Shown: one piece after another, positions 6,911-28,724 of the stretch | Numbering within the stretch: the first letter of the stretch is position 1 | How the letters are laid out: each line of letters begins with the position of its first letter | Origin: a virus | Direction: 5' to 3' (one strand) | IMG/VR virus record: IMGVR_UViG_3300044648_000427 | DNA length: 64,000 nt | The notes under the pieces: generated by a model | Database searches by the model: none | The model's input: the letters and a program-made list of their open reading frames with translations, nothing else | What the model was told of the DNA's origin: nothing | Position numbers and translations under genes: made by a program

Positions 6911-6917
6911 ACATATA

Positions 6918-7751: not shown

Positions 7752-7800
7752 TTACTCTTTTTTAACAACATTTATATTTAAGCATTCCTATAATTTCTTT

Positions 7801-7908
7801 ATGAGATCCTTTCCCGAATTTTGCCCTTTATGTAAGAACAAGTTTTGGCAATATAATCATGGTAAAGGATATTATACTTGTTCAAGATGTCCTTATACAG
7901 TTGAGTAA
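7801..7908 (+). CDS. 35-aa Zn-ribbon microprotein (not in ORF track)
   Basis: MRSFPEFCPLCKNKFWQYNHGKGYYTCSRCPYTVE; TTTATA box about 30 nt upstream. Confidence 0.65.
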   Translation: MRSFPEFCPLCKNKFWQYNHGKGYYTCSRCPYTVE

Positions 7909-7942
7909 AAACCTTTATATTTAGCTATACCTATTATTCCTT

Positions 7943-8110
7943 ATGGATAAAATTGACCAATATGTGAATGACTTACTTGAAGCATTATATGTTGATCCTC
8001 ACAATAAGGATTATAAGATAACAGTAAATGCTGTATATTTAGCCGGTGAATTAATGGATAAAGGTTATTGTAGAATATCTGATGAAAATAAAAAAAGATT
8101 AGGTTGGTAA
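7943..8110 (+). CDS. 55-aa hypothetical protein (not in ORF track)
   Basis: Open frame MDKIDQY..RLGW with its own AAACCTTTATAT promoter at about 7908-7920. Confidence 0.6.
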   Translation: MDKIDQYVNDLLEALYVDPHNKDYKITVNAVYLAGELMDKGYCRISDENKKRLGW

Positions 8111-8150
8111 ATAAGAAAGACTTATATTATACAACTCTTATTTATATTTT

Positions 8151-8555
8151 ATGGTTACTGCTGAAGAACTAGTAAGATTCCACGAACAAGTTTGTAACAA
8201 GGCAAGAAGTCTTGTGACACCAAAAGGCAAGGATTATAGTTTAAATCACGAAAAAGATACATTAGCTAATCTTCGTATTCCCGCTAAACGTGGACGTACA
8301 AAAAATGATATTGAAACTATGAAAGTAATATTGGATCTTAAGGATGGAAGATTAGATTCTCTAACGGCAGATTTAAATAAGCCTATTAACTATGAAACAG
8401 TTGATGAAACGGTTTATGATAAAATTAATTATTTAATTTATTTACTTTATTTTTATCATGAACTAAAGTCAAAACGAACTTCTGCTCCAAGCATTCAAGC
8501 TATCGAAGCAGGAAGAATACAGTTTGGGGAATCAGGAATAGAAGAGGATCTTTAA
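8151..8555 (+). CDS. Nucleotide-modification-associated domain 1 (DUF1599/Nmad1)-like all-alpha protein
   Basis: K.xDY...DTLAN...K..RL...ETVDET..D.INY pattern. Confidence 0.65.
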   Translation: MVTAEELVRFHEQVCNKARSLVTPKGKDYSLNHEKDTLANLRIPAKRGRTKNDIETMKVILDLKDGRLDSLTADLNKPINYETVDETVYDKINYLIYLLYFYHELKSKRTSAPSIQAIEAGRIQFGESGIEEDL

Positions 8556-8722
8556 TCCACGAACTCAAATTTTATTCCACTATCATAGAGTAATTCTACA
8601 ATAGATTCATCTCCTTCAATTATCATTCCATCGAGCTTTATAGGCTTAGAATTTTTATTAGCATAAACTAGAAGGTGTTTAGCTTTAGCGAGGTTTTCAT
8701 AATCTAAGAATCTAATTTTCAT
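8552..8722 (-). CDS. 56-aa hypothetical protein (not in ORF track)
   Basis: Open frame MKIRFLDY..EFVD on the minus strand, with a TTTATAAA box about 30 nt upstream. Confidence 0.55.
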   Translation of the reverse strand: MKIRFLDYENLAKAKHLLVYANKNSKPIKLDGMIIEGDESIVELLYDSGIKFEFVD

Positions 8723-8760
8723 TAGTTGATTTATTTAAACACTAATTTATAAACGTTGTT

Positions 8761-8892
8761 ATGAGTTTTAAATATTTTCGCCCTGCTATACGAGGTCATG
8801 GCCCAAATTGTAAATGCAGTTTAGATTTTGGTGGGTGCGTTATAAAGAAACTTATTGAAAAACTAGAAAGGTTTGAGGAGCAAAATAAATGA
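8761..8892 (+). CDS. 43-aa peptide resembling the N-terminus of the downstream adhesin (not in ORF track)
   Basis: MSFKYFR..IKKLIEKLERFE versus MSFQDFR..IKALLQRLEKFE; ATGA overlap with 8889. Confidence 0.65.
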   Translation: MSFKYFRPAIRGHGPNCKCSLDFGGCVIKKLIEKLERFEEQNK

Positions 8893-11339: not shown

Positions 11340-11375
11340 TAGTTATTAAATGTTTCTATATAATATCATTTTCTG

Positions 11376-12347
11376 ATGTCTAGTGAGATTCTTGTTTCCC
11401 TTTTAGGTGGAGCTTGGGTCGGAGAGAATAATCTTTCTGCTCCACGTATGAATGCTAAAACCGTTTGGGTTGGAACGGGTGCAGCTTTATCTAATCTTTC
11501 TCCCACTTATCCCGGTCAGATAGCAGTATGTAGTTCAACCGAAAGTGGATTTATTAAAGATTCTGTTTATTATCGTGATACAGATAATGCAGGATGGTTA
11601 TTCCTATCAATGTCTAAGCATACTCATAATGTTGACGATCATTTATCAGGTGGTCTTTATACTGATATAATGTATGATAATCTTATGAATGCTTATCAAT
11701 GGGGTTCATTAAGTGTTACAAAGGAAATGTTTCATAATATTGTAGCTGGTTCGGCAACAATTACCAATGATTTAAGTTCTGCGTCCGGAAAAGTTGTTTT
11801 AGATTCTGGGGCTATTGCTAATGATTATGCACAGAGCGTAGTACCGCCGGGGGCTAAATTATCTTTTGCACGTAAATCTAGGTTATTAGCGAAAGTTGGA
11901 GTTACGTTTGGAGGTAGTGGAGTAACAAATTACATTACAAGAATTGGTGTTGCTGGGGAAGATATTAACGGAGCAAATACTACAAGTAATAAATATGGTA
12001 TTGAAGCTTGTTCTCAAGATTCTCAGGTTAATTGGATGATATTTAGTGCTAATGCAGGAACTAGAACTGGAGGAACAGTAACAAGTTCTCCTGTAGATGC
12101 TGGTTATGATTCAAGTGGTAAAGGTTATAGATTAGATCATACACCGAACCTTGATATAAAATTTTATAATAATGGTGTAAATTGTGGTGCTAATTGTACA
12201 AAAACAAGTAATAATCCAAATTCTGGAAATACAGGAACAGATTATGTATTACGATTAGGAATAAAATCTACTAATACCAATGCGAAGAAGATGGCGTTAT
12301 TCGGTATTAGACTTATAGGAACCATTTCAGATGCCGCTTGGGCATAG
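11376..12347 (+). CDS. Putative tail fibre/virion beta-rich protein
   Basis: Gly/Ser/Thr/Asn-rich, in tail-module context, with a TAGTT-type promoter. Confidence 0.5.
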   Translation: MSSEILVSLLGGAWVGENNLSAPRMNAKTVWVGTGAALSNLSPTYPGQIAVCSSTESGFIKDSVYYRDTDNAGWLFLSMSKHTHNVDDHLSGGLYTDIMYDNLMNAYQWGSLSVTKEMFHNIVAGSATITNDLSSASGKVVLDSGAIANDYAQSVVPPGAKLSFARKSRLLAKVGVTFGGSGVTNYITRIGVAGEDINGANTTSNKYGIEACSQDSQVNWMIFSANAGTRTGGTVTSSPVDAGYDSSGKGYRLDHTPNLDIKFYNNGVNCGANCTKTSNNPNSGNTGTDYVLRLGIKSTNTNAKKMALFGIRLIGTISDAAWA

Positions 12348-12735
12348 AGAATTAGTTCGACTCAAGATGACTCCTCAGGAGGTTAATAATTTTAACCCTC
12401 CACAAGGAATTGATATTACTTGGCATGATTATGATTATTATCAAGGAGAAGTTACAGCTTCAATTACGGGGCTAGAATGGTCAGCTCCTGATGATACATA
12501 TTTAGTATATAAAGAAGAAGTTAATCATATGTTAGCTGATTTGAAGATTGCTCAAGATGGAATTAGAAGTAGTAAATATCCAATACCATTTATTCGTAGT
12601 ATTGATACACGTAAAAGTTTTCTTGAAGATACTGAATATGATTATTTAATTAGTAAAGGAAAAACTAACACTGAAACTTTTTATGGTAAAAATAGAAAAA
12701 CATATAAGTTAGAAACTGTAGGATTTGTAGTATGA
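12331..12735 (+). CDS. Hypothetical protein (possible tail fibre accessory)
   Basis: Overlaps the previous gene; no recognisable motif. Confidence 0.5.
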   Translation: MPLGHRELVRLKMTPQEVNNFNPPQGIDITWHDYDYYQGEVTASITGLEWSAPDDTYLVYKEEVNHMLADLKIAQDGIRSSKYPIPFIRSIDTRKSFLEDTEYDYLISKGKTNTETFYGKNRKTYKLETVGFVV

Positions 12736-12950
12736 TAGATTCAAAATCAACTACAATAGTGTTTCATACAGTAAGTAAAAATGATGGTATGTTAATTCAG
12801 GTTAGTAAAAGATTTATAGATGATTTATTAGAGTGCTTTGATGACAGACTAGAAAAGCTTACAAAATTTAGTAATACAAGGGAAGAACAACATGATAGAA
12901 TTATTAGCTATAGAAATCAAATTATGAAACAAATAACACGATTAACATAA
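12732..12950 (+). CDS. Hypothetical protein
   Basis: ATGA-type coupling to the upstream gene. Confidence 0.5.
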   Translation: MIDSKSTTIVFHTVSKNDGMLIQVSKRFIDDLLECFDDRLEKLTKFSNTREEQHDRIISYRNQIMKQITRLT

Positions 12951-12956
12951 TGACTG

Positions 12957-13268
12957 ATGAATGTTTCCTTACAAATAAGACTTGATAATTCATTACTGAA
13001 AAATATAGTAAAAAATGGGATATTCCCAGATTCCTTAGAGAATGTACTAGCATTACGAGTACATGATTTATTAAGAAAATATACTATTCCCTATAAAGAT
13101 ATTTATAGAAAAGTAACACGCTCACAGGGAGTATTATTCAGTTTATATGAAATAAGTATAACAATTATTGATATTGAATTTGATATAGGTCAGTTAAAAC
13201 TTTTATTCACAGAATGTCTTAATCCATTCGCTCATCAGATTAGAAAGATAAATATGGTAGTTCATTAA
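12957..13268 (+). CDS. Hypothetical protein
   Basis: Open frame in the operon. Confidence 0.5.
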   Translation: MNVSLQIRLDNSLLKNIVKNGIFPDSLENVLALRVHDLLRKYTIPYKDIYRKVTRSQGVLFSLYEISITIIDIEFDIGQLKLLFTECLNPFAHQIRKINMVVH

Positions 13269-13310
13269 TCAATAGTTCATTAAATGTAACAAACGCATGG
13301 ACTCTCATCC

Positions 13311-16300
13311 ATGGTTGTTCTGCCTAATGATATTAGATTCTTTTATTCAGGTGGTACTGATAATCAAAATCCACTTGCAAGTTTAGGTGGCCAAATTTCT
13401 GTTACTCAAATTATTAATGAATCTCAAGAAAACGTCTTCAATAATGTTACATTAATTGAAGCTGATAACGGATTAACAGATTACCGTTGTTTTTACGTAA
13501 AAAATGTAGGTCAAGAATTATGGAGAAATGCGGTTATTTGGCGAGAACAAGGTACACAATCTGGATTTGATAGTATTGGTATTGGGTTAGGAACTTCTAT
13601 AATTGATGGTACTGAACAAATAGTATTAGATAGGTTTACAGCTCCTATAAACGTTAATTTTGCTGGCCCTGATAGTAAGGAAAGTGCTTTACTGCTAGGT
13701 GATCTTGCCCCCGGTTCACATAAAGCAATTTGGGTAAGAAGGATAGTAGAACCTTTAGCAAGAACATTCAAGAACAATACATTTAAATTAAGAGTTGAAT
13801 TAGGAAATCCCGCTGGTAGCGGTGGTGGCGGAGGAACGCCACCGGGAAATCCGCCCGGTCTGCCCGGAACTGGTGGCGGTGGAGGAACTGGAACGGGATG
13901 TCAGACAGGATATCATAAAGTAAATGGTGTGTGTATTCCTGATACAGTACCTCCTATTACTGGAGGTGGAGGAGAAAATATTTTATGGCAATCTACTGCA
14001 TGGTCTAATGGTCATGATAGAACAATTACCTCTCATAATGCTAGAGATCCCGATGATCCTACATTATCATTTGGTGCTGGTGAAAACAGAGAATTAATTA
14101 TTAAAGGTGCATCAGATCCCGGATTTGTTAATCATACAGGTGCCAGAACTCGTATATATGTAGATCAATTTGGTACTACTACTAATCATTATAATGCTTC
14201 ACTAGAAATTCAAAAGTTTTATATTAATTCTTCACTCGATGGGTTATCTCTTAGATTACGTTCACGTCATAATGAAGATGATCCCACAACTAATCGTTTT
14301 GGAGGCTATAATATGTCAGTACATCATACAGAAATTGAAGCTCAACGTGAAAATTATCATAACGATCATACTAGTCTTACACCTTCTACTATATCCCTTC
14401 CTCATGCATTGGTAAATGGAACCGAGTATGGTATAAGATATTCATGCAGAGATACAACAGATGGAAAAGTAGAATTAAAAATGGAATTAAAAGGTGGTGC
14501 ATATGGAACAAGTTATGTTGAAGTAGCTAAAGCATATGATAATAATCCATCATCCTATATGCTTGATAAACAACTTTACCTTAATAATCGTTCGTATTTC
14601 TGGATAAGGACTAATGGAGATGCTCCAGAAGATGTTAGATATGGTTTTGTTGTTTTCAGAGATTTAGACAAAAGTTCTGTTACATCATGCCCTGCTGGGT
14701 ATACACTTAAAAATGGGGTCTGTGTTGCTGATACACTTCCTACTACTCAACCTCCTCCTTCAGGTGGTGGAGGGGCTACAATTGCAGATTATACAGCTAC
14801 GGCAGTTGGTGATACTACTTGTGGTAGTACAGCTCAAACTATTGTTAGTAGAATCGTAGGTAGAAATCCTAATTTCCATATACCTTTAGGTGATTATACA
14901 TATACCAGTTCAACTGCTTGTTGGTTATCCATGATGACTCCTCTAAAATCTAAAATATTTTCTATGAATATTGGAAATCATGATGATGAAGAAGATGAAA
15001 GTAACACGTTACGATCACAATATTTATCTTGGGTTAATTTATCTCAACCATACCATGCTTTTACATTTCGGAATACATTTGTACTTACCCTTTATACTTA
15101 TGCTCCGTTTGGGTTTGGTTCTGGTTCAGCTCAATTTCAATTTGCACAACAGCAATTAGCGGCTGCGAGGGCTAACCCTGCGATTGACTGGATTATTGTT
15201 AATTTCCACAAACCAATTTATACTGCTGCATCTAATCATTCTGGTTATACAGCTTTTCGTGATGTTTATCACCCATTATTCGATCAATATAAAGTAGATT
15301 TATGTTTATCTGGGCACGTACACAATTATCAGCGTACTAAACCACTTAAATATACTGGTACTGGAACTGGTAATAGTATAGCTAACAATCAGACTACAGG
15401 TTATATAAATCTTGTTAATCCGATATTTGTAATTGCCGGGTGTGGAGGAAGAGAAATAAGTTCAATTAGTGACCAACCATCCTATAATGCTGGTCAACGT
15501 GAAGGATATGGTTATGTACTTATGTCATGGTCAAACAATGGTAAAAAGCTTACATGTAGACATTATGATCAAACAGATACTTTACGTGATGAATGGACAA
15601 TGGACAAAACTGCGGTCAGCCAACCCCCACCACCCCCCAGCGGAGGAGGGGGAACAACGCCACCACCAACTACAGGAGGCCAAATAGATAGTAATGGAAT
15701 TAAATGGTTACTAGCAACAGGTCAACAATCTGTAATTCCTAATTCAAGATATGATAAAAGTGGAGATGAAAATGATTTTCGTTGGTCAGAAGTTTATCCT
15801 AATTTGAGAGATAATGGATTTGAAGTTACAGCATATGGTATATTTGAGACTACTAATGGTGATGCTCATTTTGCTCTCAAACATTGGGGAGGAAATCATA
15901 GTGGAGATTGTCAATATAGCGAAGGAGGGAGTTGTTGCTGTTGGTATGACACGGGTATACGTGAAAATGGAGCGGTACAATTACAAATTGAGCGACCTCA
16001 CCCCTCAAATGATGACTTTAGTGCTACTACATTTATGAGTAATATTGGAGTAGGTATGTCTAATAATACTATTGGCCTTAAATGGATAATATATCCAATT
16101 CAAGAAGGTGGAGATGTTGATCGTGGTGGAGTAAAGTTGAAAATGTATGTAGATACTAGTGGATTTTCAGCAAGTAAACCACAAAATCAATGGAGATTAG
16201 TGTATGATATTACGGACACTGGACAAATATTAGGTGATTATCCAGCTCCAGAAGAACAGGAAATTGAAGTTCGTAATTCAGATACTAATGATACTGTTAT

Positions 16301-18191
16301 GTATGGTGGAGGAATTCACTGGAGAAGATTAAGTAGGGCTGATATTAATGCAGGGGGTACGAGTGGCGGTGGTGGAACTACACCTCCCCCATCTTCACCA
16401 GCTCAACCTCCTACAAATGTTACATACTATTATGATTCAACTACCACACAAAACACACCACAAACTATAGATGCAGAAGAGTATGATAGTACAGAAGGTA
16501 TTATTGCATGTAGGCCAAATAATGGTATCACCTCAACAGTAATTTCAGGTGGATATATTAATGTTAAAAGTAATAATTCTTCTGGTGGTATATATATTGA
16601 CTACTGGAAGAAACCTCGGTTTACTCAGGATAATTTACCGGGATTTAATCAGGTAGTCTCATTTTCCTTTCTGTATGAAGGACAAGGAAGTATTACTGTT
16701 AAATCTGCAAATGAAATGACAGAAACAAATTGGGATAATCTTGATACTGTATTCGGTGGGTTCATGGTATTTTTAAATACTTCCCTAGTTACTACGGAGG
16801 GATATTCTAATGAAGTAAGTTTCCGAGCAAGATATTATGATAATATAAACAGTCCAGATCTCGCTGTACCACAACCGAGCTGGCTAGGACGTAATTCTCC
16901 AAGAACTCCTGTAGGTACATATCCTTTTCCAGCAGGAAAAACATTTGTAAATGGGAACATTTATAAAGTATTTATTACTTATCGAACTAATCAAACAGCA
17001 CAAACTGTTGTAATAACTGTATGGTTAGACTTTAGTGATGGAGTTGGATGGAGAAAAATTGTTGATTCTCATACATTTGATAGACTTAATTGGCTTCCGG
17101 GTACTGTTCCACAAGGCTATGATGATACGGAACAGATTGAACAAGGGCCTGACTTAATAAAACGACATAGAATAGTTATACGTAACAATAATGTAGATCA
17201 AGGATCTAATACTGATCTAAAGGTTAAAGATATAAAAATTGGTACAATGCCATATTTACCAGATCCTATAATTACTAATCCCCCCGGCGGCGGTGGAACA
17301 ACAAATCCACCTCCAGACGATCCAGATCCTCCATCCGGAACTTCTGGTAATGACGCAAATGGTGTAAAAATGATTTATCCAACTAAGGCAAGTGGAGATA
17401 CATTTTTATGGGATTTGTCAGGTTCTAATTCCCGAATTGCTGGGCAAAATGTAACTGCTGTTAGAAGTACATCAGGTGGCCCATGGGCATTTAGTAAGAA
17501 TTCAACAAATCCATTCCGTATATATATTTATACAAAAGAAAATAGTATTAGTAATATAAATACAACTCAATTATCTACCATTCCCCCTATAAGTACATTT
17601 AATCATAATTCACTTGCAACTTTAGGTTATTTCTATCAAGCTAGGGATTGGAAAAACATTGAATTTACAATTTACTTTTCTACAGACATGATTGTAGTAA
17701 ATGATCAAGAATTACCAAGTACTCAAACATCTTTCTTAAGTTTAATTGCTAGATCTGCTAATCATACTACTGCTAATGGTGGATGTGGAGGATCATCATA
17801 TCATGCTGATTTTAATATTCAAACAGGTGGTATTAGATTTAAAAAAGAGCAATATCATAGTTCATATGCTACTGATTCATTTACTGCTACGAATATTGGT
17901 TCCTCACAGGGTAGGTGGATGGGTCTGAAATTCGTCGTTTGGAATAGATCATCTGATGGAAAAGTTGAAATGGAAATATGGGTAGATAAAGATGCAACAA
18001 ATAGTTGGGTAAAATATTTAGGAAAAATTGATGCTGATGATTGGGGAACTGGAGCAGCTCAATGTGCGGGAACGCCGCCGGGTAAAAAGATTACTTGGGG
18101 ATCACCTGTTACAATGTTAAAAATGGATGTAACTCAAACAACGTTATTTATATCATACTTGTCTGTTAGAGAGATTACTCCTCCAAGTTAA
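13311..18191 (+). CDS. Giant multidomain virion appendage: N-terminal tail-anchor domain, lectin/lyase-like beta domains, calcineurin-like metallophosphoesterase
   Basis: N-terminal YSGG..N..P..SLGG..YRCFYVKN..IWVRR phage structural motif. Intact phosphoesterase motifs GD, GDY, GNHD, H, GHVH at about 14790-15605. Pro/Gly linkers. Confidence 0.75.
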   Translation: MVVLPNDIRFFYSGGTDNQNPLASLGGQISVTQIINESQENVFNNVTLIEADNGLTDYRCFYVKNVGQELWRNAVIWREQGTQSGFDSIGIGLGTSIIDGTEQIVLDRFTAPINVNFAGPDSKESALLLGDLAPGSHKAIWVRRIVEPLARTFKNNTFKLRVELGNPAGSGGGGGTPPGNPPGLPGTGGGGGTGTGCQTGYHKVNGVCIPDTVPPITGGGGENILWQSTAWSNGHDRTITSHNARDPDDPTLSFGAGENRELIIKGASDPGFVNHTGARTRIYVDQFGTTTNHYNASLEIQKFYINSSLDGLSLRLRSRHNEDDPTTNRFGGYNMSVHHTEIEAQRENYHNDHTSLTPSTISLPHALVNGTEYGIRYSCRDTTDGKVELKMELKGGAYGTSYVEVAKAYDNNPSSYMLDKQLYLNNRSYFWIRTNGDAPEDVRYGFVVFRDLDKSSVTSCPAGYTLKNGVCVADTLPTTQPPPSGGGGATIADYTATAVGDTTCGSTAQTIVSRIVGRNPNFHIPLGDYTYTSSTACWLSMMTPLKSKIFSMNIGNHDDEEDESNTLRSQYLSWVNLSQPYHAFTFRNTFVLTLYTYAPFGFGSGSAQFQFAQQQLAAARANPAIDWIIVNFHKPIYTAASNHSGYTAFRDVYHPLFDQYKVDLCLSGHVHNYQRTKPLKYTGTGTGNSIANNQTTGYINLVNPIFVIAGCGGREISSISDQPSYNAGQREGYGYVLMSWSNNGKKLTCRHYDQTDTLRDEWTMDKTAVSQPPPPPSGGGGTTPPPTTGGQIDSNGIKWLLATGQQSVIPNSRYDKSGDENDFRWSEVYPNLRDNGFEVTAYGIFETTNGDAHFALKHWGGNHSGDCQYSEGGSCCCWYDTGIRENGAVQLQIERPHPSNDDFSATTFMSNIGVGMSNNTIGLKWIIYPIQEGGDVDRGGVKLKMYVDTSGFSASKPQNQWRLVYDITDTGQILGDYPAPEEQEIEVRNSDTNDTVMYGGGIHWRRLSRADINAGGTSGGGGTTPPPSSPAQPPTNVTYYYDSTTTQNTPQTIDAEEYDSTEGIIACRPNNGITSTVISGGYINVKSNNSSGGIYIDYWKKPRFTQDNLPGFNQVVSFSFLYEGQGSITVKSANEMTETNWDNLDTVFGGFMVFLNTSLVTTEGYSNEVSFRARYYDNINSPDLAVPQPSWLGRNSPRTPVGTYPFPAGKTFVNGNIYKVFITYRTNQTAQTVVITVWLDFSDGVGWRKIVDSHTFDRLNWLPGTVPQGYDDTEQIEQGPDLIKRHRIVIRNNNVDQGSNTDLKVKDIKIGTMPYLPDPIITNPPGGGGTTNPPPDDPDPPSGTSGNDANGVKMIYPTKASGDTFLWDLSGSNSRIAGQNVTAVRSTSGGPWAFSKNSTNPFRIYIYTKENSISNINTTQLSTIPPISTFNHNSLATLGYFYQARDWKNIEFTIYFSTDMIVVNDQELPSTQTSFLSLIARSANHTTANGGCGGSSYHADFNIQTGGIRFKKEQYHSSYATDSFTATNIGSSQGRWMGLKFVVWNRSSDGKVEMEIWVDKDATNSWVKYLGKIDADDWGTGAAQCAGTPPGKKITWGSPVTMLKMDVTQTTLFISYLSVREITPPS

Positions 18192-19681
18192 ATATATACT
18201 GTACAAGCAAGATCATAAGTAAGATCTTCCACATAATGACTACTAGGATTGGGTTCACGTCGTACTAAACAAGTTCTTGAACCATCATAAGGATCACTTT
18301 GATTAATCCCTACTTTTAGATATGTTTGAGCTGTTCCTTCAGTATAAACTAATACTAATCTATCATCTTTAGCCATACGATGAGAATTGTTTAAATCCTC
18401 AAAATACACTACTGTATCACCTTGAGGTAATGTAGTAACATCAATTGAACCAAATGTTGTAACTATATCATTTCCTGAATTCTTCTTGATATATAAAGTT
18501 GCCGTTCCTATAGCTCCTCCATATTTTGACATAATCATATCAACACGTCGAATTTTCTTTCCAATAAGTTGAGATTTATCATTTACATTATTATTTTGAA
18601 CAGAATTATCATGAGCGATTAAACCCACATGATCTCTATTATGATCAAGCGTTATATCATGAGTTTTCGGAACAGTAAATAGTACTTGTAATGGAGGAAC
18701 ATCAACTAGTAATCCTGAACAACCATCTGATTCATTAAAGTTAATATTATATACACCAATAAGGTTTGCAAAAACGGCTCCTGTAATAGGCTCTTCTACT
18801 GGTGGTGGGTCAGTTGATCCCGGTGGTGGATCTGGGTCAGGGTCAGGGTCAGGATCTGGGTTACTTCCTCCAAGTAAAGTTATATCAATCTCTCTGATAC
18901 TTAATTTCTTGAATGTTACATTCCCATTACCTCCTTCCCATTTGTAAAATACATATGGCCCTCCATGAATTCCTATATAATCTGGGCCTCCGTCGGCACT
19001 TCCTGTTCCAGTAGTTTTTTGACATGCTCCAGCTTGTGATCCCCATCCTCCAGAATCAACGAATTCATCTACTTTTACCCATGTATTAGTTTCATCTGCA
19101 TCGATATAAGTTTCTCCTCTAACATTAGTATTATTATTAATATTAAAAATTACAAATTTAAAACCTACCCATTTATCCTTAGGGGCAGTTACTGCTGTGG
19201 TCTTCTCAGGTGTTGATGATTGATTAACATGCCACTGTTCTTTGACAAAGCGAACCTTACCTGTTTTTAGGTTAAATGTGGATTTATAGGCAAATCCTTC
19301 GCATTTTTTATCTGAAAAATGTCTACCAGTTCTAACATAAAAAGCCATAACTTTATCAGATGTTCCAGAATAATTAAAATATGCAGTAACTTCAATATTT
19401 TTCCAGTCTTTAGCATCCATATAATAGCCTCGTTCTTTCAATGTATTATGATTAGTAGTTATATTTGATTGAACAAATCCTGCACTGGTTGTTATTCCTA
19501 TTCTAACATCATCTTGTTTAGTAATAGTATAATCTTCTGATGCTGATCTATAGGTAATTGTACCGTTATCTCCATATATATCTACTCTTCCATCCGCCAT
19601 AGGGTTAGTATCAATAACCCATGATTCCCCGTTAATTTTGGATGGATAAATCATTTGTACACCTAATTGATCATTAGCCAT
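18188..19681 (-). CDS. Two-domain beta protein; N-terminal domain paralogous to the C-terminal domain of 13311
   Basis: GVQMIYPSK..DWKNIEVTAYF..KEQWH..WVGFKFVIFN matches GVKMIYPTK..DWKNIEFTIYF..KEQYH..WMGLKFVVWN. DP-repeat linker. Confidence 0.75.
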   Translation of the reverse strand: MANDQLGVQMIYPSKINGESWVIDTNPMADGRVDIYGDNGTITYRSASEDYTITKQDDVRIGITTSAGFVQSNITTNHNTLKERGYYMDAKDWKNIEVTAYFNYSGTSDKVMAFYVRTGRHFSDKKCEGFAYKSTFNLKTGKVRFVKEQWHVNQSSTPEKTTAVTAPKDKWVGFKFVIFNINNNTNVRGETYIDADETNTWVKVDEFVDSGGWGSQAGACQKTTGTGSADGGPDYIGIHGGPYVFYKWEGGNGNVTFKKLSIREIDITLLGGSNPDPDPDPDPDPPPGSTDPPPVEEPITGAVFANLIGVYNINFNESDGCSGLLVDVPPLQVLFTVPKTHDITLDHNRDHVGLIAHDNSVQNNNVNDKSQLIGKKIRRVDMIMSKYGGAIGTATLYIKKNSGNDIVTTFGSIDVTTLPQGDTVVYFEDLNNSHRMAKDDRLVLVYTEGTAQTYLKVGINQSDPYDGSRTCLVRREPNPSSHYVEDLTYDLACTVYI

Positions 19682-19776
19682 AAGATCTGAGCTTAGATTT
19701 TGGTATTTATGACAACTAAGTTTACCTTATTTCAGTTTCAATAGTTGTTTTGTTTGATTTATTTAAAAGTTTTCAT

Positions 19777-19965
19777 ATGAAGTTACAGAAAGGAGCGATT
19801 CTATCAAAGAATAATGCAAGTTACATTACATGTGTGAAATGCGGCAGAGAGTTAAATATCTTTAATGAATACGATTATTATGATCTAAATGGATCATTCA
19901 TTAAAGAATGCTGCGGGAAAATTCACACACTTACTCAACATACTTATATCTTCCAATATAACTAA
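19777..19965 (+). CDS. Small Zn-finger protein
   Basis: CVKC...CCGKIH. ATG 19777 is preferred over TTG 19750 from promoter spacing. Confidence 0.55.
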   Translation: MKLQKGAILSKNNASYITCVKCGRELNIFNEYDYYDLNGSFIKECCGKIHTLTQHTYIFQYN

Positions 19966-20011
19966 GAGGAATCTTAGTTCTCTTTTTTATCTTTCCTTAT
20001 AATTTCTCCAT

Positions 20012-20689
20012 ATGACTAAGAATAAAGAGCTAAAGAAGCTCGGAGAGCAAATTGACGAACTTGAAGAAGGAGAAATCAAGAAACAATTAAGTATCAATTA
20101 TCGTAATATTTTACACAACAACGGTGAATTACCTTGTGATGGCATTTGGAATGCAGCAATGGGTAAATGTGACGAATTTGATGAAACAAGTATCCCTCCA
20201 AAAGTATCAGCAGGAAGAAATAGAACAGTAGATGTAGGTGAATCTGTTACTTTAGCCGGAGAAATTAAAGATTTTAAAAATTATCTGGTATATAAAGGAT
20301 GGAATCAAGTAACTCATCCATCGGTTCCATTAGTACAACAAGAAGGTTCAGCAGATGGTTCAACTCTTATCATTCATCCAGTGAAGGAAGGAGAATATAC
20401 ATATCAATTTACTGCAACAGATGTAAAAGGACATAGTGGTTCGGATACAGTAGTTGTAACAGTAAAATCAAAGGAAAGCAGAAAAGCAGAAAGAGAAGCA
20501 AAAGAAAAGAAAGAAGCTGAAGAAAAGGAACAAGCAGAGAAACAAGCTAAAGAAAATAAAATAATTGAAGAAAAACCAAAACCAATTGTTGAAGAAAAGA
20601 AACCAATTGAAGAAAAAAAACCAAACTTTCAAGGCTTTTTAAAGGCTGACGAGGAATTTAAACCAAAAGAATTCAATAGAGGTAAATAA
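20012..20689 (+). CDS. PKD/Ig-like domain protein with charged coiled tail
   Basis: PPKVSAG..V.L.G..W.Q..G.YT.QFTATD..G..GSDTVVVTV. Confidence 0.75.
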   Translation: MTKNKELKKLGEQIDELEEGEIKKQLSINYRNILHNNGELPCDGIWNAAMGKCDEFDETSIPPKVSAGRNRTVDVGESVTLAGEIKDFKNYLVYKGWNQVTHPSVPLVQQEGSADGSTLIIHPVKEGEYTYQFTATDVKGHSGSDTVVVTVKSKESRKAEREAKEKKEAEEKEQAEKQAKENKIIEEKPKPIVEEKKPIEEKKPNFQGFLKADEEFKPKEFNRGK

Positions 20690-20692
20690 TCA

Positions 20693-21469
20693 ATGTACAA
20701 AAACACCGTAATTGTTGCAGCAATAGTGTTTATAACCCTATTTACTGCTTCAGTTACAACTTTTTCTCAAAAAGAAGAAGTACAACAAGTTATTTTAACT
20801 GATTTCATAAAACAATATACTGATTACGGTCAACATGCTGACCCAGCTTATAGAGAAATTTATAATGTATTAAACTTATTTGACAATAAAGTAAATACAA
20901 CTTATTCATTCTGGTCGCAACTTGGTGACTCAGGATTCGTCGCAGACTTGAAAGGCCCGATGGAACAACAAGTTTGTGGTGCTGAATTATATGTTTTTAA
21001 TCCTCAAAATTCTCCCTTTGTTTTACGTCTGGGAGATAAAGAAATCACAGGATCGTTAGATTCTACAGTTAAAAAAATAGATATTCCTGATTGTGTTAAA
21101 CAAATAGATAAAATTTCTTTAGATATTGATGGTAGTACTTCAACTGATCTGGAAAATGCAAAATGGACAACACTAGAAGAACTTAAGATTTTCACAAAGA
21201 ATGTTATACCTCCAGTATGTCCTCCAAATACAAAATGGGATGCAGATTTACAAAAATGTGTTCCAATTAATCCACCAATTGATAACGGTACAGATATTAC
21301 AAATTCAAACATAACTTTGAATGTATCAGGTTCAACAATTACAATAAATGCTGATGAGACAAGTGAAATTATCATCCCACAAAAACAATCTCTAATTCCA
21401 GAAAAGGAAGATGAAGATGAGGATGAGGATGAAAAGAAAGACAAAAAGAAAAAAGGAGATAAAGATTAA
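20693..21469 (+). CDS. Secreted/membrane-anchored discoidin(F5/8)-like protein
   Basis: N-terminal basic plus hydrophobic signal. FDN...WS...DL...W..LEELKIF pattern, Cys hairpin, acidic/basic tail. Confidence 0.6.
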   Translation: MYKNTVIVAAIVFITLFTASVTTFSQKEEVQQVILTDFIKQYTDYGQHADPAYREIYNVLNLFDNKVNTTYSFWSQLGDSGFVADLKGPMEQQVCGAELYVFNPQNSPFVLRLGDKEITGSLDSTVKKIDIPDCVKQIDKISLDIDGSTSTDLENAKWTTLEELKIFTKNVIPPVCPPNTKWDADLQKCVPINPPIDNGTDITNSNITLNVSGSTITINADETSEIIIPQKQSLIPEKEDEDEDEDEKKDKKKKGDKD

Positions 21470-24400
21470 TGATAAAAATAATTGCATTCGGTGATACTGA
21501 TACAACTTCAGACGCCTCAAGCATTATGGCTCAAATGGTAAAAGAGCCAAATGTAGATGTATTTTTAGGCTTAGGGGATTATCCTTATGCAGGCCGATCT
21601 ACAAAATGGTGTAGCATGGTAGATCAACATTTCACCCCAGAACTAAAAGGAAGATTAATGCTTAATCAAGGAAACCATGAAGATGAAGAATCAGAAACAG
21701 AAGCTTCTCAACAAGATATAGAAAAATGGGTAAATGATCATAATAGTAAACATCCACAATATAAAATGGATAAACTCGATATTACTCCACCTGAAGCAAA
21801 TGGCGGAGATTCAACATGGGAAAAACCTACATGGTTAACCTCACGACAAGTAGGCAATGTCTACATTATAAATATGAATACTCAAGACATGGATGTTGAG
21901 TTCAAGAGGAATCAATATAATTGGGTACTTGCTGAAATTAATAAAGCTAAACAATTAAAAGCTGAAGGTAAAATTGATTGGATAATCAATACAGCTCATA
22001 AACCTTGGTTTACTTTAAAATCCAGCCACAGCCCTTATACAGCAGTTAGAAAGATTTATAGTGATCTATTTAAAGATGTTGTAGATTTCAACCTTCACGG
22101 TCATAATCATAATACACAATTATGGTTGCCAATGGTTGCAGACGATACAAGTGGTAATGGAACTGGTACACAACTTTTCACTTATGCTTCAGATGGTAAG
22201 ACTTTTGATTTCACTAAATCTCATGGATGGCTGACCATAGTTTCGGGGCATGCTGGCCATGAACACAATGGAATTAAAGAGACTGGAAATAAAAATTGTA
22301 TGTGGTTTAATGATACGGCTTTTGGATATACTGTAATAGAAATTGACGGTAAAAAAGCTCATGTTATAGCAAAAGATGAAACAGGAGATACTATGTTTGA
22401 ATACTTTGTAACAAAAGAAGGTGGAACTCCAGATGATAATCCACTAGCTAAATTACTCGTTCCTTCACAAGTAGCAGTTGGATCAACTGTAACACTTGAT
22501 GGAAGTCAATCTGTTGCTGATACATTAACAATTACACAGACCTTGGGAACACCTGTAAATCTCACAGATGCAGGCAAATTCAAGAAATCATTTGTCGTAC
22601 CTGACGCTAATTCTATAATGGCAGCAGGTAACTTCGCATTGGGTTTCCAAGCAGTAGCACAAAAAGGAACCAAACAATCTATAGCACAAGTATCAATACA
22701 AGTTACTACAACAGATCCAGCAGATCCACCAGTGGCTAAATTAACTGCTCCAACAAGTGCAATAGCAGGATCAAAGGTTATACTGAATGCAAATGGATCA
22801 ACTAATTATGATAGTCTGGTATTTTCACAAATATCTGGGCCAAACGTTTTAATTGAACCACTCGATGCATTAAGGAAACAGTTTAACGCACCAAATACTC
22901 CCACACAATTAGGATTTGAACTTAAAGCTATTAAGGGCACACAACAATCAACAGCTCAAGCAACCATACAAATTAATTCTGAATCTTCAACTGGAGAGAC
23001 AAAACTCATACCAATCAGCGTTGCAGCATCAGGGCAAGATTTAGGCAAAGAAGCTTCAAAAGCCGCAGATGGAAATTTCGAATCCAGATGGTCATGTGAT
23101 GGAGATGGAGAATGGATAGAATTTAAATTTGATAAAGTTTATCCGATTACCAAAGTAAAATTAACATGTTATCATTATGATAAAACATATAAATTTGAAA
23201 TTAAAGGAAAACAATTCGAAAATCCAGCAGGAAGACCAGTAAATTCATTAGTAGAATATGACTTGAAAGACCTTAACATTATAAGTGATACAGTAAGGAT
23301 AATTGGACATGGAAATAATCTAACTACATATAACTCTTTCCGAGAAATTGAATTCTATTCTGGAACCGCAGACCCACGTCATTGTCAACCGGGTTGGCAC
23401 TGGGATGATACGTTAAAACGTTGTATACCAGATTTGGAACCACCTATAAATCCAAATAATAAACCACCAGTTGCAAATGCAGGACAAGATCAAACTGTAG
23501 CTCCAAAATCTACGGTAACACTAAATGGATTGGCTAGCTCAGACCCAGATGGAACGATAAGTTCATATTCATGGACTCAGTTAAGCGGCCCAACAGTAAG
23601 TATAAGTAATGCAAATACAGCAGTTGCTTCATTTATTGCACCAGATCTTGATACGCCACAACCACAAACTCCAATAGCGGTAATAACGCCAAACACGCTT
23701 ACAGGATTAAAAGGTTCAACTTTAACAGTTTCAGGTACAAGTTCTCAAAATGCAAGTACATACAAATGGGTAGCAAGTTCTGGAAATTCAATATCCGGTT
23801 CAAGCACTAATTCAACAGCTAACATTGTACTTTCTGGTACAGTTGGTAGTAATAATAGTGTAACTTTAACCGTTACAAATTCAACAGGGCAAACTAATAG
23901 TGTAACCAAAACTATAAATATAACGACAACTCCATCTACCGAACTAGATGCAGAAGCAGAAGCACTTATATTAGCCAAAGTTGGTGAAACAGTTTTACTA
24001 AAAGATAACGGTTCTAAAGGAGCAATTACACGTCATGAATGGCTAAAAGAAACACCTGATGCACAAGCAATTCAATTAATTGCCAATTCAAGTGCAAAAT
24101 TCGGAGCTAAATTCATTGCAACAAGCAATATGGTAGATAAAGATATTAGATTCAGATTAAGGGTTTTCGACGCTCAAAACAACTTTAATGATGATATAAC
24201 TGGCACTAAAGTATCAATTACCGCTGGAACTCCAAGTGGCGGATTCGGTCAAGATGCATTCGGAATGAAGATGCTTCTCAAACCAACAGGTAAGAAAATC
24301 GCTATGGAATGGGGTACAGACCACGAAAATGGCCAAAGATTTAACGTAAATCATGAATTCCATAATTATATAATGCAAGGGTACTTTAAGCTAGGATCAG

Positions 24401-26118
24401 GTCAAGATGCAATAAACCACAAGGGAGACGGCCCCAACCATGGAGGATGTACGTCAACAAGTAACTTTATCTGTCTATGGTATGAGCTTCATTTGGAGCT
24501 TTCCACAGGAAAAGGTGAATTACAATACGAATTCCCTCATCCAAAGAACAATAACGTTGACTCTTCAAAATTGGAATTATCCAAATCTATAGGCAAATTA
24601 AATGCTGGACAATGGATAGGATGGGCTACCGCTTATTACTGGGGTGCTGATGGATACAGGCATATAAAAGCCTTTGTTGATCCAAATCCATTCCCTAACA
24701 ACGATCCAAACCAAAAACCATTGAATAATTGGGATAATGTTGTATATGCAGTTGAAAGAGGTCAAATAGTACCAAATATTACAATGCCAAGAGACTTGCA
24801 GAAAGTAATAGATTCTGATGCGGGATTTGAAAGTGAAATCCGTATGAACAATGCAAATTCGGGAACAACTGATATGAAAAACGTATGGGTTATGGAAGTT
24901 GATCCAAAAGTAACAGGAATTCAACCATTAATGAACCAAACAATCAATTGGCAAGTATTACCTGACAAGAGTTCTAAAGAACGAAGAGCATTAGATGAAG
25001 AACGAGATAGAGAATTAGGTATAAATGATGATATAAAACCAAAGAAAATTAAAGAAGCTATAACTACCGCACTTCCAAAAGATTTACTATTCCAACTCAG
25101 AGTAACAGATAATAAAGGGTCTAGTAGCACAGATACAGTAAAGATTACTGTTTCAGACTCTTCACTCCCACCACCTCCAGATGATGTAGATGCTAAATTC
25201 CCTGAATTATTAGCAAAAGCAACACCCGGCAGTACATTCGTACTTGATGGTTCCCAATCAACAGGAAATATTACATCATGGAATATTAAACAAGATGAAG
25301 GCCCAACAGTTCAATTATTAGATAATCCGAAGAAATGTTCAAAACAGTTTACAATGCCAAATGAAAAAGTCAAATTTACTCTAACTGTAAGTAATTCAAC
25401 AAAATCAAATTCTGATACAATTACCGTAAATCCAGATGATGAACAGCCAACAGGTGATATATTATATGATTCAAATATTCATGGTAAATGGAATGATGGA
25501 AACAAACGAACTGTAGATGATAAAGAAGGAAATCAATCACCGGATGGAAAAGGATTTCATACTGCTGCATCAGGTAATCCTAGATTTATAATCGATGGTG
25601 ATGGTGTAGGACACTTAGAAGCAGATTCAGGACATGGCCGTATCTATATCCTAGCCAAAAACTACAATTCCAGACTAGAATTTGACTTTATGTTTGAAGA
25701 TGAAAATATAGATAACATATCTTTCAAGTTAAGAAGTAGACATCAAGAAGGTTCTGATTGTAAGAACAGATTTGGTGGTTTCGGGGGTGCCATAGATAGA
25801 GCAGGTGGAGAAATTGATTTCCAGACAGAAAGTTGTCATAACGAACACGAAAACAAGATTGCAAAACCAATTCCGCCATTCCAAACAGGTACATGGCATA
25901 AAGCGGCAATATCGGTATGGGATAAACCAGACAAAAGTGCAGTTAATCTGAAAGCAGAAATAGATGGTAAAGAAGTTTTAACCGGAGAACATAAGAATCC
26001 TCAACCCTATTATGTTGATGAGGCAAAATTCATGGAACAAAGTTATTTCTGGTTAAGAATAAATAATTCAAAGACAGGTAAAGTAGCCTTCAAAAATGTT
26101 AGATTAATTAAAATCTAA
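21469..26118 (+). CDS. Giant multidomain protein: metallophosphoesterase, multiple PKD, F5/8 discoidin, lectin/lyase-like domains
   Basis: GD, GDY, GNHE, H, GHNH motifs; ADGNFESRWS..GEWIEF discoidin; PPVANAGQDQTV PKD. Shares two domains with 13311. Confidence 0.8.
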   Translation: MIKIIAFGDTDTTSDASSIMAQMVKEPNVDVFLGLGDYPYAGRSTKWCSMVDQHFTPELKGRLMLNQGNHEDEESETEASQQDIEKWVNDHNSKHPQYKMDKLDITPPEANGGDSTWEKPTWLTSRQVGNVYIINMNTQDMDVEFKRNQYNWVLAEINKAKQLKAEGKIDWIINTAHKPWFTLKSSHSPYTAVRKIYSDLFKDVVDFNLHGHNHNTQLWLPMVADDTSGNGTGTQLFTYASDGKTFDFTKSHGWLTIVSGHAGHEHNGIKETGNKNCMWFNDTAFGYTVIEIDGKKAHVIAKDETGDTMFEYFVTKEGGTPDDNPLAKLLVPSQVAVGSTVTLDGSQSVADTLTITQTLGTPVNLTDAGKFKKSFVVPDANSIMAAGNFALGFQAVAQKGTKQSIAQVSIQVTTTDPADPPVAKLTAPTSAIAGSKVILNANGSTNYDSLVFSQISGPNVLIEPLDALRKQFNAPNTPTQLGFELKAIKGTQQSTAQATIQINSESSTGETKLIPISVAASGQDLGKEASKAADGNFESRWSCDGDGEWIEFKFDKVYPITKVKLTCYHYDKTYKFEIKGKQFENPAGRPVNSLVEYDLKDLNIISDTVRIIGHGNNLTTYNSFREIEFYSGTADPRHCQPGWHWDDTLKRCIPDLEPPINPNNKPPVANAGQDQTVAPKSTVTLNGLASSDPDGTISSYSWTQLSGPTVSISNANTAVASFIAPDLDTPQPQTPIAVITPNTLTGLKGSTLTVSGTSSQNASTYKWVASSGNSISGSSTNSTANIVLSGTVGSNNSVTLTVTNSTGQTNSVTKTINITTTPSTELDAEAEALILAKVGETVLLKDNGSKGAITRHEWLKETPDAQAIQLIANSSAKFGAKFIATSNMVDKDIRFRLRVFDAQNNFNDDITGTKVSITAGTPSGGFGQDAFGMKMLLKPTGKKIAMEWGTDHENGQRFNVNHEFHNYIMQGYFKLGSGQDAINHKGDGPNHGGCTSTSNFICLWYELHLELSTGKGELQYEFPHPKNNNVDSSKLELSKSIGKLNAGQWIGWATAYYWGADGYRHIKAFVDPNPFPNNDPNQKPLNNWDNVVYAVERGQIVPNITMPRDLQKVIDSDAGFESEIRMNNANSGTTDMKNVWVMEVDPKVTGIQPLMNQTINWQVLPDKSSKERRALDEERDRELGINDDIKPKKIKEAITTALPKDLLFQLRVTDNKGSSSTDTVKITVSDSSLPPPPDDVDAKFPELLAKATPGSTFVLDGSQSTGNITSWNIKQDEGPTVQLLDNPKKCSKQFTMPNEKVKFTLTVSNSTKSNSDTITVNPDDEQPTGDILYDSNIHGKWNDGNKRTVDDKEGNQSPDGKGFHTAASGNPRFIIDGDGVGHLEADSGHGRIYILAKNYNSRLEFDFMFEDENIDNISFKLRSRHQEGSDCKNRFGGFGGAIDRAGGEIDFQTESCHNEHENKIAKPIPPFQTGTWHKAAISVWDKPDKSAVNLKAEIDGKEVLTGEHKNPQPYYVDEAKFMEQSYFWLRINNSKTGKVAFKNVRLIKI

Positions 26119-27594: not shown

Positions 27595-27857
27595 CAGAAG
27601 TTCTCACTTTTCCCCCTGAACGTGTATGCGTTGATTGCGGCTCAAAAACTACATATGGAACTCAGTGGTATTATTTTGAAGATGGATTAACTTGTAATAG
27701 ATGTTATGAGAAAAGAAAATATAAAATGAGTAAACGTAAACGATTCTATAGGAAGACTGAAGTATGTTTATACTGCGGTGGCCCGTTCAGAAAGTCTACG
27801 TCTAATATAAAGTTTTGCAAAAATATATGCAAGAAAAAGTATAATATATTAAGATAA
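27591..27857 (+). CDS. Double Zn-finger protein
   Basis: CVDC..W..CNRC and CLYC..FC..C. Confidence 0.6.
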   Translation: MTEVLTFPPERVCVDCGSKTTYGTQWYYFEDGLTCNRCYEKRKYKMSKRKRFYRKTEVCLYCGGPFRKSTSNIKFCKNICKKKYNILR

Positions 27858-28724
27858 AAATATTTTTTTGTTGAAAAGTTCATCTCCTGATGAGCTTATC
27901 ATTTTTAGATGTATTCCATTTTGATCAAATGTAAATATCGGTGCTTGATAAGTTTCTCCATCCAAGTATTGCCATAATGGATTAGTTTCCTCTATTTTAT
28001 CCAATGAACGTCCAAGAGATCCAAATATACCCCAAACAATACCTAGATTATCTTCATTTGTTGTAGGTACTAGTTGGTTGTTAACCATCCTTAGATTATC
28101 AGAAATTTGAGTATCATGGTCATGCCCTTGAGTTACTAAATCAACAATATGAGCATAAGAATAAATCAAATTAATTATATTTTTATAATCTTTTATTTCT
28201 GATGGTTTATGATCACCACAGGAATATGCCATTTTTAAATTTTCATCCAACATACAACTCATAATCATCTTGTGCATGGCAATTACTACATATTCAATTT
28301 GACCTGCTAACTTTAACTGATTTGCTTTTTCCAACTCAGTATTTAGAAAATCTTTATTCATTTCTTGGGTGTCAAGAGCGATTACATAAACATCCTTATG
28401 TTCATAGGAATAAAAATTAGAATCTAGATTAAAATGTTCAGTAAGTTGTTCCCATGACTTTTCAGCTCCTTTTTCACTAGATTCGTGATTTCCTCTAACA
28501 ATTTTCACATGAAGCCCTTCTACCATATCAATCCAACATTGTTGATCATCTTGATATGAATAATCACCTAAACCCTGTAAAAGTTCTACGTTGTTGGATT
28601 TGATGTTATTTATATTCTTTTCGGCCTCTTCACTACATGTAAAATCACCTGCAAAACTAGCGTTAAACGCATAAGCAGAGGGCATACTAACCGCTAATAG
28701 TACTAAAATTATTTGTTTTATCAT
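27849..28724 (-). CDS. Secreted calcineurin-like metallophosphoesterase (purple-acid-phosphatase-like)
   Basis: Signal peptide ending AYA. Motifs AGD, GLGDY, RGNHE, MH, QGHDH. Confidence 0.8.
   Translation of the reverse strand: MIKQIILVLLAVSMPSAYAFNASFAGDFTCSEEAEKNINNIKSNNVELLQGLGDYSYQDDQQCWIDMVEGLHVKIVRGNHESSEKGAEKSWEQLTEHFNLDSNFYSYEHKDVYVIALDTQEMNKDFLNTELEKANQLKLAGQIEYVVIAMHKMIMSCMLDENLKMAYSCGDHKPSEIKDYKNIINLIYSYAHIVDLVTQGHDHDTQISDNLRMVNNQLVPTTNEDNLGIVWGIFGSLGRSLDKIEETNPLWQYLDGETYQAPIFTFDQNGIHLKMISSSGDELFNKKIFLS

Follow-up and report, generated by a model that had tools for sequence, protein, structure and literature searches.

Introduction

Concanavalin A (ConA)-like sugar-binding modules are well known on the tail proteins of phages. 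In TM4 gp23 (C-terminal domain, PDB 9n6a), in the baseplate of mycobacteriophage Douge (8zdo), and in the "evolved Dit" of Lactobacillus phage J-1 (CBM2, 5ly8), a conserved attachment part is combined with exchangeable sugar-binding modules. The appendage protein gp12 of phi29 and the GDPD domains in staphylococcal and lactobacillal baseplate and Tal proteins are virion phosphodiesterases that attack teichoic acid. Purple acid phosphatases (PAPs), among them the enzymes of sweet potato (1xzw) and kidney bean (4dhl/1kbp), are classical phosphate-scavenging enzymes and usually broad-specificity monoesterases. PAP-like genes are also on record for Microbacterium phages (clusters EK1 and EG), where their function is stated to be unknown (PMC13560708, PMC12352085), and phosphate scavenging has been discussed for phage PAP genes (PMC13560708). 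Here we describe three neighboring genes, P0001, P0002, and P0003, within positions 13311 to 26118 of a 64,000-nucleotide (nt) stretch of DNA from a soil virus (IMG/VR record IMGVR_UViG_3300044648_000427), the whole of which is called the window below. Their products are assembled from shuffled modules, including two PAP-type metallophosphoesterases (MPEs) and several members of a predicted ConA-like domain family, and we consider the chances about even that P0001, and probably also P0002 and P0003, serve an uncultured tailed virus of soil ammonia-oxidizing archaea (Nitrososphaeraceae) as large, modular proteins of its appendages or decoration.

The predicted structures of two of the modules, A and D, have the same fold as the phage tail modules named above (Z scores of 12.8 to 15.9), and P0001 resembles those tail proteins in combining a putative attachment part with exchangeable modules. 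There is, however, no sequence similarity to the phage modules, and here a whole series of modules is linked to an enzyme and appears to come from secreted proteins of the archaeal host. The phosphoesterases share with the plant PAPs the type of catalytic domain and five metal-ligand motifs, including GDxxY, but no plant-type N-terminal fibronectin-like domain was detected, and the viral enzymes sit inside multimodule proteins of 1500 to 1600 residues. With phi29 gp12 and the GDPD enzymes the locus would share its logic, that of a particle-borne enzyme acting on a phosphate-containing polymer; those enzymes, in contrast, have other folds (beta-helix and GDPD) and act on teichoic acid-bearing bacterial hosts. 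We know of no phosphate-linked surface polymer in Nitrososphaeraceae. Secreted PAP/ConA-like/CBM32 proteins of Nitrososphaeraceae, such as that of locus L073, have an enzyme of the same clade, module D, and the same order of MPE before D as the viral protein, but they have signal peptides or membrane anchors, and the phage anchor domain is missing from them.

The original prediction held that nothing equivalent had been described in archaeal tailed viruses. This holds for archaeal viruses in the literature searched, in which work on viruses of soil nitrifiers and ammonia-oxidizing archaea mentioned none of these domains; among phages, the PAP-like genes of the Microbacterium phages stand as a partial precedent. 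A tblastn search of 50,697 phage records with both MPE domains, the B-C-D segment, and the upstream open reading frame (ORF) of 1465 residues gave no match, and our MPE profile and Pfam detected no such enzyme in the half of the crAss-like IAS virus record to which they were applied. Three things are new here: in one clade of archaeal viruses, anchor and PAP are fused and this fusion is conserved; an undescribed family of secreted enzyme-lectin proteins of the host is reused on a large scale; and the locus defines four or five domain families without a name (A to D and the module at the C terminus of P0003).

Results

P0001 (13311 to 18191, plus strand) is an ORF of 1626 amino acids, P0002 (21469 to 26118, plus strand) one of 1549 amino acids, and P0003 (18188 to 19681, minus strand) one of 497 amino acids. 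The two giant proteins had been predicted to reuse the same modules in different order, and both BLASTP homology of each claimed pair and profiles of our own reproduced this, the orders being anchor-A-MPE-B-C-D in P0001 and MPE-PKD-discoidin-PKD-B-PKD-A in P0002. Homology extended over the phosphoesterases (E = 1e-21), the A modules (P0001 residues 223 to 452 versus P0002 residues 1330 to 1544, E = 2e-19), and the B modules (P0001 residues ~800 to 1000 versus P0002 residues 935 to 1136, E = 3e-6; 2e-8 with phmmer). Module D recurs in P0003, as had been claimed (P0001 residues 1346 to 1626 versus P0003 residues 2 to 265, E = 9e-35), and the sequence motifs quoted for A and B are present in both copies. 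Pfam recognized Metallophos only in P0001 (residues 507 to 673, E = 9e-12), and Metallophos (residues 3 to 215, E = 1.6e-10), K319L-type PKD domains, and a weak F5/8-type-C domain in P0002, while P0003 had no Pfam match at all. Searches with modules A to D against PDB sequences (single sequences and profiles), Pfam, NCBIfam, and PHROGs, lax thresholds included, gave no match.

Within P0001, module A occupies 13977 to 14672 (residues 223 to 454), module B 15681 to 16337 (residues 791 to 1009), module C 16401 to 17315 (residues 1031 to 1335), and module D 17346 to 18188 (residues 1346 to 1626), all on the plus strand; C is an independent module in metagenome and host proteins. The D module of P0003 (18878 to 19678, minus strand; residues 2 to 268) retains all checked conserved residues of the D family except W251, replaced by H, and is followed by a further shuffled module, E (18191 to 18796, minus strand; C-terminal residues 296 to 497), which occurs, as one copy or as tandem copies, in over 20 metagenome proteins and also in a viral contig, L083, that is taken up below. 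In P0002, a CBM32/discoidin domain (22984 to 23388, plus strand; residues 506 to 640) gave a weak Pfam match (F5_F8_type_C, E = 2.7e-5, 24.7 bits, under the curated cutoff of 28.2), and residues 516 to 631 matched the CBM32 of AlyQ in PDB (E = 1.5e-6). PKD/K319L-like Ig domains follow at 23446 to 24228 on the plus strand (residues ~660 to 920; PF22352, E = 1.3e-31, three stretches), with a PDB match to KIAA0319L and with further PKD-like repeats at residues ~325 to 505 and 1160 to 1320. Module B of P0002 (24247 to 24897, plus strand; residues 927 to 1143) is a divergent copy that has lost several residues invariant in the B family, and its module A (25456 to 26115, plus strand; residues 1330 to 1549) has kept the checked conserved residues of the A family except two (N71, which is H in P0001, and A74, replaced by S).

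Shuffling extends well beyond this locus. Residues 790 to 1626 of P0001 gave 511 matches among 1.84 billion representative proteins, with B, C, and D matching independently and in many contexts; B had 52 close relatives in the representative protein search, and A had 15 long relatives. At least 20 module orders, including D, DD, DA, DB, BA, ABCD, CB, and DDDD, were found when our profiles were run on 165 metagenome proteins, a sample chosen for its A-D content, so that adjacency counts are biased. One metagenome protein of 1923 amino acids (P0006) is an orthologue of P0001 with an NHL/SMP-30 beta-propeller block between modules B and C; this extra block shows ongoing gain of modules in a P0001-type protein.

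The phosphoesterase of P0001 (type 1, PF00149; 14772 to 15620, plus strand; residues 488 to 770) and that of P0002 (type 2, PF00149; 21469 to 22428, plus strand; residues 1 to 320) had been said to keep all metal-binding motifs, and both indeed contain, in order, the five motifs that provide the seven metal ligands of PAPs: GDxx, GDxxY, GNH(D/E), an H-x-P His motif, and GHxH. The P0001 enzyme matched the plant PAP 1xzw with an E value of 2.5e-14, with the His and GHxH motifs aligned. Both are predicted PAP-type MPEs whose active-site motifs are intact, as judged from their sequences. The Pur_ac_phosph_N plus Metallophos_C layout of two-domain plant and bacterial enzymes was found by Pfam in neither P0001 nor P0002, and Metallophos_C was seen only in a relative, P0008. 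In a tree of 57 MPE domains, the P0001 enzyme fell in a clade of anchor-linked enzymes adjoining the clade of host enzymes, and the P0002 enzyme fell in a separate, fully supported clade of metagenome proteins. An origin of both enzymes by recent duplication was rejected, since they belong to separate well-supported clades. The type 2 enzyme is rare in the host family (2 of 121 genomes at E = 1e-30). A third, small phosphoesterase gene of the window (27849 to 28724, minus strand; Pfam Metallophos, E = 0.002; E = 1e-38 with an MPE profile built in this work) encodes an enzyme that forms a long branch in the MPE tree and belongs to a related family separate from the shuffled proteins.

The N-terminal 170 residues of P0001 (13311 to 13820, plus strand) match PHROG 13135 (E = 3.5e-14). 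Homologues of this domain were found by tblastn in 55 phage records; that of KVP40 (215075 to 215623) has tail gene 15 on one side and terminase gene 16 on the other, and that of an Alteromonas schitovirus lies two genes upstream of the portal gene. A metagenome scan with the domain returned 159 relatives, and the best 80 loci hold 81 complete ORFs, 80 of which are stand-alone proteins of 165 to 175 amino acids. Among the loci examined, the gene directly follows that of a phrog_6079 tail protein in four and elsewhere lies near another tail protein gene or straight after that of the major head protein; in one locus the portal gene is close downstream. PHROG 13135 was seen in marine, sludge, and soil metagenomes (loci L117 to L194), typically right after phrog_6079.

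In the clade of the present virus the domain is fused to other modules; among 14 related metagenome proteins it is N-terminal in 13 and internal in one, and varied cargo follows it. A phosphoesterase is present in 14 of 15 such fusions, P0001 included, followed by different A-B-C-D combinations, and at least 8 module orders follow the anchor. The 92.7-kb IMG/VR contig L083 has kept the order of the five genes upstream of P0001 (4440, 6194, 8889, 11376, and 12331; blastp E = 1e-107, 2e-45, 4e-18, 2e-33, and 5e-5, respectively) and continues with an anchor-enzyme protein of 487 residues and then with separate genes for D, D, and D-D-E-E-E modules. This minimal protein, taken with the fused relatives, argues that anchor plus enzyme is the conserved core and that the lectin-like modules are accessory and variable. 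An IMG/VR scan for module A found no locus, and one for module D found a single locus, L083. The claim that the domain is a virion anchor is borne out indirectly only, through homologues that stand alone within structural gene blocks of unrelated phages. From these contexts, PHROG 13135 appears to be a small protein, widespread among phages, that is able to act as a display platform for cargo. As P0001 begins with a domain that in other phages is encoded among the genes for the particle, it is probably displayed on the particle, and its combination of a putative attachment domain with exchangeable distal modules suggests a receptor-binding or fiber protein; no attachment domain was recognized in P0002 or P0003. 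The absence of signal peptides, which had been noted for the phosphoesterase proteins, was confirmed, with no signal peptide-like N terminus in P0001, P0002, or P0003.

Module D was found mostly in the archaea that the virus probably infects. A scan of one genome per prokaryote species returned 199 D-encoding stretches, mostly from Nitrososphaeraceae and related metagenome-assembled genomes (MAGs) of ammonia oxidizers, often with several per genome; D was also found in Archangium, Kofleriaceae, Dokdonella, and Massilia. Of 69 cellular proteins with these modules (nearly all D), 51 start with a signal peptide-like or anchor-like hydrophobic stretch. In cellular proteins, D is joined to paired CBM32 domains, to PKD and cadherin-like domains, to the phosphoesterase described here, and, in Massilia, to a PF14099 lyase domain. 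The Nitrososphaeraceae protein of locus L073, which is 1402 residues long, has the layout signal peptide-LamG-LamG-SpaA-MPE-D, and its enzyme is 39% identical to that of P0001 (E = 1e-66). Module A occurs in 17 of 121 Nitrososphaeraceae genomes, mostly as a stand-alone protein of 230 to 290 residues. The type 1 enzyme occurs in 54 of the 121, often in 20 or more copies (53 of 120 when genome G082, which is flagged as unpublished and on which no claim hangs, is left out); identity between the P0001 enzyme and host copies is 39 to 42%, and the best loci encode signal peptide-MPE, CBM32-CBM32-MPE, and MPE-D proteins.

Description of the modules as host-type surface modules thus stood up, with D, A, and the enzyme abundant in secreted proteins of Nitrososphaeraceae and with MPE-D fusions present in hosts. 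By homology, the enzyme, modules A, B, and D, the CBM32 and PKD domains, and the enzyme-D fusion are assigned to the secreted and surface repertoire of the host lineage, and the virus probably infects soil ammonia-oxidizing archaea (Nitrososphaeraceae). The PAP expansion in this family (54 of 121 genomes; loci L092 to L111), with enzymes fused to CBM32 or D, is an observation in its own right: a literature search combining Nitrososphaera with purple acid phosphatase or metallophosphoesterase returned nothing relevant and no paper on such an expansion. In Kofleriaceae MAGs (L030, 3315 to 6780; L051, 3356 to 7993), three to four paralogous proteins with a D domain are encoded in tandem, their signal peptide-like N termini followed by Cys, as in lipoproteins, and these myxobacterial arrays indicate that the D family is not confined to archaea.

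Profile-profile comparison of nonoverlapping module sets with hhalign gave probabilities of 98.4% for B-D (E = 6e-15), 95.4% for A-D (E = 2e-8), and 36% for A-B; A-C reached 89.5%, confined to the last 85 columns. On these alignments, A, B, and D are distant homologues that form three branches of one unnamed family. Their shared core consists of a strand with a basic residue and His at its end, a turn rich in Gly, and a hairpin with Glu-x-x-His. AlphaFold models of A (predicted local distance difference test [pLDDT] score of 92, predicted template modeling [pTM] score of 0.90) and D (pLDDT of 87, pTM of 0.89) were compared with known structures in two independent ways. Foldseek returned legume and L-type lectins (E of ~1e-6, probability of 1.00, template modeling scores of 0.4 to 0.55), and a VIA-align scan of 48,161 chains gave the same top neighbors for A and D (Z of 13.6 to 15.9 over 180 to 190 residues): the TM4 gp23 receptor-binding domain, YesU (1oq1), the lectin domain of GALC, CBM66, and the Douge baseplate protein. 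Neighbors in BFVD were actinophage minor tail and receptor-binding proteins as well as proteins of the haloarchaeal tailed viruses HHTV-2 and HGTV-1, which places the ConA-like fold in archaeal tailed viruses also. The models settle the fold predicted for A and D as a ConA-like two-sheet sandwich (jelly roll); the expected fold is confident for these two models, and B is tied to D by the B-D alignment.

Function is left undecided by the fold, because the list of structural neighbors is a smooth continuum. In the VIA-align scan, GH16 enzymes scored ~13 and PL7, PL14, and PL20 lyases 11.7 to 12.6, so that catalytic neighbors lie 2 to 4 Z units under the binding domains. No Pfam profile, those of lyases included, matched A to D or 30 members of the D family at E values up to 1. 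The original prediction had read conserved residues in A, B, and D as catalytic: such charged residues do exist, but no sequence link to PL7, PL14, or PF14099 was found, and the closest structures are binding domains. Kinship of the module profiles to the PF14099 lyase was rejected, hhalign giving a probability of at most 3% against the domain of the Massilia fusion. In the D family, both His residues are less than 90% conserved. The invariant charged residues would fit either catalysis or a binding site under conservation, and from the modeled structures the ConA-like modules are more likely to be binding domains than enzymes.

P0003 is convergent with P0001 and overlaps its stop codon. P0002 is the last gene of a tight operon (20012-20693-21469), the genes of which abut or overlap; the two small genes ahead of it (20012 to 21469, plus strand) encode a protein with a PKD domain and a Lys/Glu-rich repeat and a protein of 258 amino acids. 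A degenerate repeat of 12 to 24 nt that encodes the Lys/Glu-rich part lies at 20483 to 20621, within the PKD-domain gene (20012 to 20689) and just upstream of P0002. The genes had been described as following TAGTT promoters, and boxes were found at 13273 to 13277 (plus strand), 38 nt upstream of the P0001 start codon; at 19714 to 19718 (minus strand), 37 nt upstream of that of P0003; and at 19975 to 19979 (plus strand), 37 nt upstream of gene 20012 at the head of the P0002 operon. TAGTT also precedes gene 11376 (at -36), with the variant TACTT before gene 4440 (at -35), and altogether a TA[G/C]TT box lies 35 to 38 nt ahead of the starts at 4440, 11376, 13311, 19681 (minus strand), 20012, 29723 (minus strand), and 46557 (minus strand). 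The background frequency of TAGTT is 1.6 per kb per strand overall, and other genes of the window mostly have ordinary TATA-like boxes (of the TTTATA or TTAAATA type). TA[G/C]TT looks like a distinct promoter class that covers all transcription units of P0001 to P0003.

Upstream of P0001, the block of five plus-strand genes whose order is kept in L083 spans 4440 to 13268. Gene 6194 has a weak match to a tail fiber PHROG. Gene 8889 (8889 to 11339) encodes 816 residues, the first 340 of which are conserved in L083, with two Laminin_G_3 (ConA-like) stretches, and its product is a fourth lectin-fold protein of the same gene block. The starts of the two convergent D modules contain an inverted repeat of 39 nt, 77% complementary (17348 to 17386 versus 19638 to 19676); as it encodes the most conserved peptide of D, ND..GV.MIYP[TS]K, conservation at the protein level may explain it. 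Elsewhere in the window, at 39470 to 43177, a ribonucleotide reductase large subunit with an ATP-cone is split by an intein carrying a LAGLIDADG endonuclease domain (Pfam).

Discussion

We propose that the N-terminal domain of P0001 would attach the protein to the virus particle and project the enzyme together with four ConA-like modules, so that display on the particle could be achieved without signal peptides. The lectin-like modules may provide multivalent binding to ligands of the host envelope, S-layer glycan, or extracellular polymeric substances (EPS) that the host homologues recognize, and the phosphoesterase may cleave a phosphate mono- or diester in surface material, clearing a path to the receptor or helping release of particles. 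P0002 and P0003 would be coexpressed partners, attached in another way or released; their virion display may be suggested by the shared promoter box and shared modules. That the substrate would be phosphorylated glycans, EPS, or the S-layer is something that we purely infer.

Several points weigh against this explanation. Since PAPs are usually broad monoesterases, a role in phosphate scavenging would be equally natural. Presence on the particle and binding to the host are predicted here, for an uncultured virus, from its genes alone; homologues of the anchor are unnamed everywhere, with none placed in a particle, and P0002 and P0003 have no anchor domain. Each of the A, B, and D families has many invariant charged residues, and host proteins with a signal peptide, two CBM32 domains, and D also occur, which fits a catalytic domain. 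The bias in the adjacency counts belongs here as well, as does the basis of the host assignment, which is module similarity, base composition, and promoter style and not a CRISPR spacer or an integration site.

In a stronger form of the original prediction, A, B, and D would be enzymes in their own right, polysaccharide lyases or hydrolases built on a jelly roll, and the proteins would be multienzyme depolymerases acting on EPS or S-layer glycans, with the phosphoesterase as one activity among several. Invariant Arg, His, Glu, Lys, and Asp residues lie on beta-strands in large number, with a His...Glu-x-x-His core common to all three families; a signal peptide, two CBM32 domains, and D make up a layout that carbohydrate-active enzymes typically have, and in one Massilia protein D is fused to a PF14099 lyase domain. 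PL7, PL14, PL20, and GH16 enzymes are among the structural neighbors (Z of 11.7 to 13.1), and an atlas lead points to PF14099 and DUF6772. Against this, no Pfam, NCBIfam, or PDB sequence match to lyase or hydrolase families was obtained even at lax thresholds, the hhalign comparison with the Massilia PF14099 domain was negative, the best structural neighbors are noncatalytic, the His residues of D vary, and B of P0002 has lost invariant residues, and we regard such an enzymatic role as unlikely. Alternatively, the proteins could be auxiliary host-like phosphatases, made late and released at lysis or kept on debris, where they would free phosphate from organic phosphorus for the infected population, as the PAP paralogues of the host presumably do, rather than form part of the virion. 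The massive expansion of the enzyme family in the host lineage, the third phosphoesterase gene of the virus, the scavenging role classically held by PAPs, and the lack of an anchor in P0002 and P0003 would all fit. Yet none of the three proteins has an export signal, the P0001 enzyme stands behind a domain of phage structural modules in a fusion found in 14 of 15 relatives, and its gene belongs to a conserved block that includes a tail fiber-like gene, so we hold this to be rather improbable.

The calcineurin-like/PAP fold also includes lipid and nucleotide phosphodiesterases, such as acid sphingomyelinase, and a virion phosphoesterase might act on phospho-head-groups of the archaeal membrane or on extracellular nucleic acid and so aid penetration. 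To our knowledge, ammonia-oxidizing archaea have only an S-layer outside the membrane, and the diphosphonucleotide phosphatase of lupin (3zk4) is among the PDB matches. This possibility nevertheless has no specific support, and the modules that recur beside the enzyme, lectin-like ones and CBM32, suggest carbohydrate ligands; we consider it very unlikely. A more far-reaching proposal is that the A/B/D family is a new class of enzymes processing surface glycans or phosphoglycans, present in dozens of secreted host proteins and in tandem with the PAP-type enzyme, and that the virus captured the set as a particle-borne multienzyme depolymerase. We think this quite unlikely, but if it were true, a virus of Nitrososphaerota would be described for the first time as having virion enzymes that degrade the envelope.

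Under the explanation that we favor, with P0001 as a modular appendage protein, the locus adds an archaeal-virus case to the scattered reports of PAP-like enzymes in phages, and it presents modules and a PAP-type enzyme exchanged between host and virus. It also supplies specific constructs for identifying the surface molecule that is bound and cut on host archaea that grow slowly or resist cultivation. Recognition and crossing of the host envelope by viruses of soil ammonia oxidizers are nearly unstudied, as are the secreted phosphoesterase and lectin-like families of Nitrososphaeraceae, and this locus links the two.

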